The notes under the pieces: generated by a model
Databases searched by the model: none
What the model was told of the DNA's origin: nothing
Seen by the model: the letters and a program-made list of their open reading frames with translations, nothing else
Made by a program: the position numbers and the translations under genes
From: Clostridia bacterium
GTDB taxonomy: Bacteria > Bacillota > Clostridia > Oscillospirales > SIG627
Assembly (NCBI GenBank): GCA_017467865.1
Contig: JAFUKG010000032.1
Coordinates: 117,681-181,680 of the forward strand
Direction of reading: 5' to 3'
Length of the DNA: 64,000 nucleotides
Shown here: positions 40,596 through 40,889 of the stretch, piece by piece
How the letters are laid out: each line of letters starts with the position of its first letter
How positions within the stretch are numbered: the stretch's first letter is position 1

Positions 40596-40623
40596 TTGCT
40601 TTTTTCAAAATCCGTGTTATAAT
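40596..40623 (+). promoter_or_regulatory. Promoter of a candidate small RNA
   Basis: TTGCTT (40596..40601), 16-nt spacer, TG-t-TATAAT (40618..40623). Confidence 0.45.
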
Positions 40624-40629
40624 AGATAT

Positions 40630-40717
40630 AGAAAAAGGCTACCGGCAACGGTTCAGCCCTTGGTATCAGTTAATAAAAAATAACCGCAACCTTTGGACCG
40701 GGGCGGTTATTTTTTTA
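40630..40717 (+). ncRNA. Candidate sRNA of about 90 nt, convergent with and overlapping the 3' end of the small ORF (antitoxin-like)
   Basis: Bounded by the promoter above and the terminator ataaccgc...gcggttat-ttttttt (40680..40717). Has a 5' hairpin ggct-accg-GCAA-cggt-tc-agcc (40637..40658). No convincing coding potential. Confidence 0.35.
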
Positions 40718-40778
40718 TGCTTACAATATATCCTGTCGCTGCGATAAGTATTAACGCAAGGGCGATAAAATAATCCAT
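40707..40778 (-). CDS. Hypothetical 23-aa hydrophobic peptide MDYFIALALILIAATGYIVSIKK (type I toxin-like)
   Basis: Hand-translated, because it is too short for the ORF track. SD aagggggtga lies 4 nt before the ATG. Own promoter and leader. The stop codon lies inside a bidirectional terminator. Confidence 0.4.
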   Translation of the reverse strand: MDYFIALALILIAATGYIVSIKK

Positions 40779-40793
40779 AGCATCACCCCCTTA

Positions 40794-40853
40794 AAAAATA
40801 AGAGGGCACACGCCCTCTCATTTGAGGGCTGAACCGCCGCCGTTTATGGTAGC
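40794..40853 (-). promoter_or_regulatory. Structured 5' leader of the small ORF, with alternative anti-terminator and terminator pairings
   Basis: On the - strand: a 5' hairpin ggctacc...ggttcagcc, then gccctc-aaatga-gagggc-gtgt-gccctc-ttatttttt. The middle gagggc can pair with either flanking gccctc, and the second pairing forms a terminator just before the SD. Confidence 0.4.
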
Positions 40854-40860
40854 CGTGGGT

Positions 40861-40889
40861 ATTATAGCATAATGTGTCGGAATTTGCAA
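40861..40889 (-). promoter_or_regulatory. Promoter of the small-ORF transcript
   Basis: On the - strand: TTGCAA (40884..40889), 17-nt spacer, TG-c-TATAAT (40861..40866). Confidence 0.5.

Follow-up and report, generated by a model that had tools for sequence, protein, structure and literature searches.

An unannotated stretch of about 290 bases in the genome of a Clostridia bacterium (GenBank assembly GCA_017467865.1, contig JAFUKG010000032.1) holds the gene for a 23-residue membrane peptide and, converging on it, the gene for a small antisense RNA; together these are probably a type I toxin–antitoxin-like module. The locus lies at 40596–40889 of the 64,000-nucleotide (nt) stretch of DNA that was analysed (the window, to which all coordinates refer), where both strands of 40200–41300 were read for feature listing. 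Judged by sequence comparison, it is a member of a very large and as yet unnamed family of toxin–antitoxin-like cassettes in gut Firmicutes and their phages. The type I reading had been offered by a first-pass annotation of the stretch and is supported by covariation in the small RNA, by conservation of the peptide open reading frame (ORF), by sequestration of the Shine–Dalgarno sequence (SD) across the family and by sister modules that encode peptides of the Hol_Tox family. Type I systems are regarded as narrowly distributed, and as hard to find because searches for them begin with the toxin peptide (PMC5367252, PMC2887945). In the present family it is instead an RNA chassis, common to the modules, that is conserved and can be searched for. 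It consists of a pair of strong promoters that converge, 5′ elements that are nearly the same on both RNAs, an SD buried in a hairpin and a shared terminator whose A-tract encodes the Lys-Lys-stop of the peptide; a single model of 90 positions finds modules in about 29% of the genomes of a major gut and rumen order.

A small RNA family of gut Firmicutes

The first-pass annotation had proposed a non-coding transcript of about 90 nt on the plus strand. What is found there is a conserved candidate antitoxin gene of about 88 nt (40629..40716), its structure backed by covariation. A covariance search of related genomes, originally suggested for the leader of the opposing mRNA, was run with a model of this small RNA (R1; 90 positions and 20 base pairs, built from 27 copies), which scores the window copy at 88.6 bits (E = 2.5e-17) and has matches in 87 of the 301 genomes searched from the same order, representing 57 of 152 genera. 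Single genomes carry up to 14 copies among the matches listed, some in tandem arrays with a spacing of about 335 nt. R1 also reaches Lachnospiraceae, Negativicutes and Lactobacillales, and in a phylum-wide sample it matches 26 of 401 genomes. A word pattern built from the most conserved words of the small RNA (ACGGT...TAACCGC...GGGCGGTTATTT) identified at least 120 genome contigs and added phage contigs, 49 viral contigs being found in IMG/VR. Among the pattern matches listed are Oscillospiraceae, Acutalibacteraceae and Ruminococcus (with three tandem copies in R. callidus ATCC 27760, at about 552–553 kb of NZ_CP186925.1), many Lachnospiraceae (Butyrivibrio, Roseburia, Dorea, Oribacterium, Acetatifactor), Negativicutes (Phascolarctobacterium, Sporomusa, Selenomonas), Desulfosporosinus and Bombilactobacillus. 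Cultured carriers of the modules include Ruminococcus callidus, Agathobacter rectalis, Roseburia (R. inulinivorans DSM 16841), Butyrivibrio (B. hungatei XBD2006), Phascolarctobacterium and Sporomusa rhizae DSM 16652. A blastn search with the module against phage and plasmid collections gave no match, the sequences having diverged too far for DNA BLAST; copies on phages and plasmids did come up with the pattern and the covariance model.

These searches recovered about 120 distinct modules. Across 118 aligned matches to R1, 89.9% of alignment cells are paired, compared with 84.6% after shuffling (none of 500 shuffles reached the observed value), 16 of the 20 base pairs show changes on both sides, and the covariation score is 0.203 against 0.117 when shuffled and at most 0.062 when partners are slid. 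The terminator loop reads UU[U/G]G in 82% of 110 distinct loops (22% when shuffled), which fits a recognition loop for a kissing contact; in the window copy the apical loop is UUUGG, a YUNR-like motif.

Complete modules (loci L088, L097 and L098, 55–60 bits with R1) also lie on contigs from metagenome bins labelled Escherichia coli, Bacteroides thetaiotaomicron and Segatella copri. Such contigs probably carry Firmicutes or phage DNA that was assigned to the wrong bin, rather than real occurrences in the named species.

Organisation of the locus

All of the features named by the first-pass annotation were found where it had placed them. On the plus strand, direct reading gives a small RNA promoter at 40596..40623 consisting of TTGCTT (40596–40601), a 16-nt spacer and the extended −10 sequence TGtTATAAT (40615–40623). 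Its −35 box matches the consensus at three of six positions, hence its absence from the promoter scan output, and homologous copies have TTGACA-17-TATAAT at this position. The small RNA runs from a purine-rich 5′ tail through a 5′ hairpin (GGCUACCG-GCAA-CGGUUCAGCC, 40637–40658) and an A/U-rich linker to a terminator with its U run, and folds at −32.2 kcal/mol (z = −3.22 against shuffled controls).

On the minus strand, the toxin mRNA promoter (40861..40889) comprises TTGCAA (40889..40884), a 17-nt spacer and TGcTATAAT (40869..40861), the scan counting 10 of 12 matches with the TG. The predicted mRNA (fold −67.4 kcal/mol, z = −4.76 against shuffled controls) begins with a 5′ element, GGCUACC-AUAAACGGCGGC-GGUUCAGCC (40827..40854; inverted repeats I8 and I17), which is a twin of the small RNA 5′ hairpin; their similarity is not incidental, these elements being the most conserved and co-evolving part of the family. 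A leader switch follows at 40793..40829, made up of B (GCCCUC, 40829..40824), B′ (GAGGGC, 40817..40812), B′′ (GCCCUC, 40807..40802) and then UUAUUUUUU (40801..40793). A strong SD, AAGGGGGUGA (40783..40792), predicted to be base-paired, precedes the 23-codon candidate toxin ORF, MDYFIALALILIAATGYIVSIKK plus TAA (40707..40778), which encodes one transmembrane helix and a basic Lys-Lys C-terminus. The two genes share a bidirectional terminator (40675..40715), a 13-nt perfect inverted repeat (I14) with arms at 40675–40687 and 40703–40715, and the TAA of the ORF (40709..40707) lies inside its stem. The terminator A-tract is formed by the Lys-Lys-stop codons of the peptide, and there the small RNA and the mRNA are perfectly complementary.

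The word CGGUU(A) is repeated in the small RNA 5′ hairpin, the mRNA 5′ element and both terminator arms of most modules. In the window it occurs at 40650–40655, 40704–40709 and 40836..40831, with its complement UAACCG in the terminator.

Peptides carried by the chassis

In every module examined, the ORF stops at a constant distance from the end of the small RNA, its last codons, Lys-Lys(-Lys)-TAA, being the A-tract that pairs with the small RNA U run. The partner peptides fall into many classes of 20–45 residues, among them that of the window (M-[DE]-Y...IKK, 21–25 residues), a TxpA-like class (M-x-T-Y-E...KKK) and xxFSLGYxxGKxxKTQK. Eight of the 18 members of the TxpA-like class match the Pfam family Hol_Tox (best E-value 7.7e-14), and one phage-borne partner peptide does so at 44.5 bits. 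Ten peptides were looked up in a protein collection: six are present, all as ‘hypothetical protein’ (one with an extra, unrelated name), and four, that of the window included, are absent.

By the pattern of its substitutions, the window’s ORF evolves as protein-coding sequence. Among four close copies, the 84 nt of SD and ORF have two variable sites, one synonymous (TAT/TAC) and one exchanging Val for Ile (GTA/ATA), while the linker and the terminator loop are far more variable. In distant homologues the string Ala-Thr-Gly-Tyr-Ile is kept through synonymous third-position changes (GCG/GCT/GCA/GCC, GGA/GGC/GGT, TAT/TAC, ATT/ATA). The ORF is conserved, as is the flanking RNA structure.

Proposed mechanism and its main alternative

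The complementary 3′ ends noted in the first-pass annotation overlap perfectly, and co-folding of the small RNA with the mRNA gives a 54-base-pair (bp) duplex at these ends, at −147.7 kcal/mol compared with −96.0 for the two RNAs apart, a gain of about 52 kcal/mol. On the type I reading, the minus strand would yield an mRNA of about 185 nt for the single-helix membrane peptide, a toxin by analogy, and the plus strand an abundant small RNA of about 88 nt acting as antitoxin. The primary mRNA would be translationally silent, one of the two leader copies of CCCUC always being paired with the GGGGG of the SD, and translation would need refolding or a processing event that removes or sequesters the 5′ part. 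Such 5′ processing has been proposed for par RNA I, and a shortened Lpt RNA I found by rapid amplification of cDNA 5′ ends suggests it there also (PMC5608710). The terminator hairpin of the small RNA is the exact complement of that of the mRNA, and first contact would probably be a loop–loop kiss at the conserved UUUGG loop, extending to a duplex of about 50 bp over the stop codon and 3′ end. In the manner of txpA/RatA and bsrG/SR4, this duplex may target the mRNA for double-strand-specific cleavage and 3′ decay; in txpA/RatA, RNase III acts on the duplexed 3′ end (reviewed in PMC6563280).

Several observations weigh against this reading. In the co-fold, the pairing of the SD is unaltered by the small RNA, and therefore only decay, not translational control by the small RNA, can be proposed. 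The window peptide does not match the Hol_Tox profile at E-values up to 10, none of the 21 members of its class matches any Pfam family, and the class as a whole matches no Pfam or NCBIfam family. A relationship between this 23-residue class and Hol_Tox was considered and rejected: hhalign against the Hol_Tox-like class aligned the KKK tail only, with 27% probability. Finally, YhzE-2, a small hydrophobic protein of this kind, is non-toxic when overproduced (PMC2887945).

Most of the weight left beside the type I reading falls to a membrane peptide that is regulated by antisense RNA but is not a toxin, with a physiological role in transporter or envelope modulation and no part in addiction or defence. 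Architecture alone cannot tell the two apart, and the behaviour of YhzE-2, the absence of a toxin family match for the window’s class and a length of 23 residues, shorter than most characterised type I toxins, are all as a physiological peptide would have it. We nevertheless consider such a role unlikely: true Hol_Tox toxins are encoded on the same chassis, the double lock on translation is typical of toxic products, and the modules are multi-copy, tandem, patchy between close relatives and present on phage contigs and plasmids, which is the pattern of selfish or defence elements rather than of housekeeping genes. If the modules do work as type I systems in the way proposed, they would add up to a large and so far unannotated set of functions, in addiction, defence or persistence, among gut commensals, and the chassis would be a natural platform for the exchange of membrane peptides.

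Leader folding and sequestration of the Shine–Dalgarno sequence

In the mRNA alone, the G run of the SD has an unpaired probability of 0.00–0.02. Sequestration is a property of the family, with a median unpaired probability of 0.036 compared with 0.357 for shuffled leaders (n = 80, p = 4.5e-14). Stepwise folding of the window leader forms B:B′ at 50 nt and B′:B′′ at 62 nt, and in the full mRNA fold B pairs with the SD around the B′:B′′ hairpin; therefore one CCCUC copy always covers the SD. In the four close copies the leader stems are invariant and the loops vary.

The first-pass annotation had read the three segments of this leader, all of which are present, as able to form either an anti-terminator or a terminator. 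This is plausible for the window copy and its three nearest relatives, but it does not extend to the family: most other modules have no U run after B′′, but retain the B/B′/B′′ anti-SD logic and have a conserved ACAUAGAAAUC segment between B′′ and the SD. The ‘terminator’ hairpin was not flagged by the terminator scan, and in the leader fold part of the U run is taken up by pairing with the A-rich 5′ flank. The same evidence bears on the idea that the leader is mainly a transcription attenuator, sensing a ligand or factor and deciding whether the mRNA is completed, with the plus-strand RNA secondary. The order of stepwise folding, B:B′ first and then B′:B′′ with the U run, is what an attenuator would show, and the arrangement is retained in the four nearest copies. 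However, the loss of the U run elsewhere in the family, the hairpin missed by the scan and the standing of the small RNA as the better-conserved half of the module all make an attenuator improbable. Nor is the leader recognised as a known riboswitch: no Rfam model, riboswitch or leader models included, reaches its gathering score anywhere in the window, and a permissive scan (E up to 10) gave chance-level matches only (best E-value 0.24).

That the locus is a functionless, chance juxtaposition of promoter- and terminator-like sequences in an AT-rich spacer, to which the general frequency of such motifs might point (nine promoter-like sites against 3.8 expected), can be dismissed, being already refuted at the level of family sequence conservation: homologous copies number in the hundreds and show covariation, with the reading frame conserved and the position of the stop fixed. 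The arrangement of features is, on the same comparisons, far beyond chance; the same architecture recurs within the genome and across hundreds of other genomes.

Three further pairings involving the leader were considered and rejected. The AGCCCU that follows the 5′ hairpin of the small RNA might act as an anti-SD, but complementarity of 6–7 nt is present in few modules only (CCCUGAA:UUCAGGG in a module on contig C16 of the same genome is an example) and is not general. The small RNA might supply leader element B in trans, but in most modules the identity between the two RNAs stops at about AGCC(C), which speaks against it as a mechanism for the family at large. Lastly, pairing in cis or in trans was considered for the leader word GGCGGUUA and the terminator word UAACCGCC, which are complementary at 10 of 12 positions in the window (I24); there is no covariation between them, because altered terminator stems (AACGC, AACCC, AACACGCC) coexist with GGGCGGUUA kept in the leader.

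In modules with long leaders (L013, L017, L034, L071, L075, L106 and many others), the stretch from the third anti-SD element to the SD contains a conserved single-stranded motif, (Y)UACAUAGAAAUC, with a small hairpin and GAAAUC after it; the window’s subfamily has UUAUUUUUU at that place. The hairpin loop AUAGA of the small RNA is similar to the core of the (Y)UACAUAGAAAUC motif.

Twin 5′ elements and a possible read-through clamp

Both RNAs of a module start with nearly the same 35 nt or so, the 5′ consensus being GGUGCUACCGAUAGACGGUUAGCC for the small RNA and GGUGCUACC-AUAA-CGGUAGGCGGUUAGYCC for the mRNA. These elements vary between modules but match within a module: similarity between cognate elements is 11.66 compared with 8.40 for non-cognate ones, the highest of 2,000 permutations being 8.97 (n = 106). 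Independent divergence after an old duplication would not give such a cognate match, and therefore the two ends evolve in concert. How toxin mRNAs get locked and released is the concrete question that these co-evolving twins pose.

One possibility, which we put forward tentatively from folding predictions, is that the twins provide a second layer of control through a clamp and its mimicry by the antitoxin. In such a model a fraction of toxin transcripts would fail to stop at the shared terminator and run on into the antitoxin gene. The extension gained at the 3′ end, being antisense to the 5′ element of the antitoxin, would form a 24-bp 5′–3′ clamp with the mRNA’s own 5′ element. The antitoxin would then be a perfect, higher-affinity mimic of the mRNA 5′ end, either competing for the clamp arm or turning the whole extension into a long duplex.

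The folding energies are consistent with such a clamp. For the window read-through transcript (40855..40629), the minimum-energy fold holds a 24-bp end-to-end panhandle, at −101.4 kcal/mol compared with −81.5 when long-range pairs are forbidden, and the panhandle duplex alone is worth −47.3 kcal/mol against −18.4 for the two local hairpins. Over 103 modules the median is −43.7 kcal/mol for the cognate duplex, −27.2 for non-cognate duplexes and −17.9 for local hairpins. Differences from small RNA to mRNA that a duplex would tolerate as G·U pairs (A to G 170, C to U 65) outnumber those that would break a pair (G to A 39, U to C 14), a bias with p = 1.6e-28. This bias toward changes that keep the duplex is suggestive, as the counts are of alignment cells and not of independent events; of the 235 compatible changes, 125 come from two positions, one of which also makes an alternative local hairpin, and setting these two aside leaves 110 against 52. 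Across the family the terminator is somewhat less strong when read in the mRNA direction: the nine bases past the stem contain 5.5 U there, compared with 7.9 in the other direction. In the window the U run on the mRNA side is good, and read-through there may be rare.

If the clamp is real, the antitoxin gene doubles as antisense RNA and as clamp template, which would explain the shared starts of about 35 nt, their parallel change between modules and the fact that unrelated peptides can be exchanged on one chassis.

Genomic context and copies in the same genome

The module sits, as the first-pass annotation had described, in a gene-free stretch of some 900 bp (40477–41374) beside an XRE-type regulator, an HTH_3 protein (40111–40476, plus strand; 28.4 bits), beyond which lies a YpsA/SLOG-family protein (39546–40073, minus strand; 33.1 bits). 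The XRE gene is not a conserved partner of the module. Another genome of the same genus keeps the YpsA–XRE gene pair with no R1 match, on a contig that stops about 380 nt past the XRE gene.

The remainder of the gene-free stretch has repeats of its own. AAAYGATGYT boxes are found at 40906–40995, upstream of the toxin promoter, and a 36-nt unit occurs twice with 94% identity (41040 and 41248) and a third time, more weakly, at 41110 (67%). Both of the good copies lead into strong hairpins (41070–41101 and 41288–41334). None of these boxes and 36-nt repeats of 40900–41372 was found beside other modules of the family.

The contig that carries the window is its own reverse complement across all 256,226 bases, with its centre of symmetry between 10433 and 10434, such that 1–10433 mirrors 10434–20866. 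This is almost certainly an assembly artefact. Every feature of the contig is doubled in genome-wide searches, and the two copies of 100% identity found in the genome search are therefore one locus. Other modules of the genome are distinct. Contig C16 has a second module with the window’s peptide (87% DNA identity) and, about 3 kilobases away, a module with the same two 5′ elements and a different, TxpA-like ORF of 29 residues, MTAYEIFALFLALLGIIVKLLIELINAKK. A module on contig C15 encodes another 23-residue peptide, and one on contig C1 a Hol_Tox peptide (23.9 bits, cut-off 23.3) convergent with an R1 match. At C7:62958–63042 (L004) there is an orphan small RNA (76.8 bits) with no convergent small ORF, the sequence past its terminator leading into an unrelated gene; apparently the toxin half was lost or replaced.

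At C1:10450–10621 (L007), AAA-AAA-TAA has become AAA-AAA-GAA-TTA, and the ORF continues through the terminator for a total of about 42 codons.

Comparison with known systems

The protein gene of a type I system is represented here by the 23-codon single-helix ORF with its strong SD and near-consensus promoter, and the antisense RNA, from sequence alone, by a conserved gene with promoter, terminator and perfect 3′ overlap. The closest known relatives are TxpA/RatA, BsrG/SR4 and SprG/SprF (Hol_Tox, PF16935, ‘putative holin-like toxin’), which share with the module a small single-helix toxin with a Lys-rich C-terminus and a convergent antisense RNA overlapping the 3′ end of the toxin mRNA, and which are found on prophages, plasmids and chromosomes. 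The chassis seen here also carries true Hol_Tox peptides in sister modules, whereas the window’s own peptide is no detectable member of that family. Unlike the antitoxins of TxpA/RatA and BsrG/SR4, the window small RNA is much shorter (about 88 nt), with an overlap confined to the terminator; SR4 is about 180 nt long and RatA about 220 nt. A relationship between the small RNA and SR4 by homology was considered and rejected, R1 finding nothing meaningful at the SR4 position beside bsrG in the Bacillus phage SPbeta (best score 5.7 bits), and no Rfam antitoxin model, that of RatA included, matches the window at gathering score or at E-values up to 10. R1 does match plasmids of Leuconostoc, Lactobacillus and Lactiplantibacillus, on the antisense strand and precisely at the 3′ ends of genes annotated as ‘putative holin-like toxin’ (29–31 bits, E about 1e-5, with the same AAAUAACCGC...GGCGGUUAUUU terminator), and it matches tandem Hol_Tox modules of Bombilactobacillus mellis.

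In the literature, TxpA-like peptides in Clostridiales and Lactobacillales were reported by Fozo et al., as was an antisense RNA of about 110 nt at the 3′ untranslated region of Enterococcus EF3263 (PMC2887945). Twin 5′ elements are not described for TxpA/RatA, BsrG/SR4 or SprG/SprF (PMC6563280, PMC8594479), and neither the review of Clostridia (PMC6563280) nor the T1TAdb paper (PMC8594479) describes an RNA chassis like this one, nor did such a chassis turn up in any other paper searched. Full-text searching for ‘holin-like toxin’ returned genome annotation papers only.

The par system of the Enterococcus faecalis plasmid pAD1 (Fst, RNA I–RNA II) and Lpt have the same compact convergent layout with a shared bidirectional terminator, a 5′ helix and SD-sequestering stem-loop in the toxin mRNA and a second sequence relationship between the 5′ regions of the two RNAs. 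In par the initiating loop contact involves a U-turn. The 5′ repeats of par and Lpt are direct in the DNA, which makes the RNAs complementary and allows the antitoxin to cover the start codon; Lpt of Lactobacillus plasmids is Fst-like and has such complementary direct repeats (PMC5608710). In the window, by contrast, the repeats are inverted in the DNA, giving the same sequence in both RNAs, and the small RNA therefore cannot mask the start codon in the manner of par. The window peptide also differs from Fst in having neither an Fst signature nor an Fst family match.

The 24-bp panhandle of the hypothetical read-through transcript resembles the 5′–3′ fold-back lock of hok/sok and AapA1/IsoA1, and such long-distance interactions are among the structural descriptors of toxin mRNAs in T1TAdb (PMC8594479). 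These systems differ in being Gram-negative and in having an antisense RNA that overlaps the 5′ part of the mRNA, whereas the clamp arm in the window would be encoded by the antitoxin gene itself, a layer of control that is not known from any type I system. Taken together, these comparisons place the module in a known kind, that of type I systems with 3′ overlap and in part with Hol_Tox toxins, while the RNA family and most of its peptides are undescribed: the module stands outside every curated toxin or RNA family, yet shares its chassis with Hol_Tox modules.

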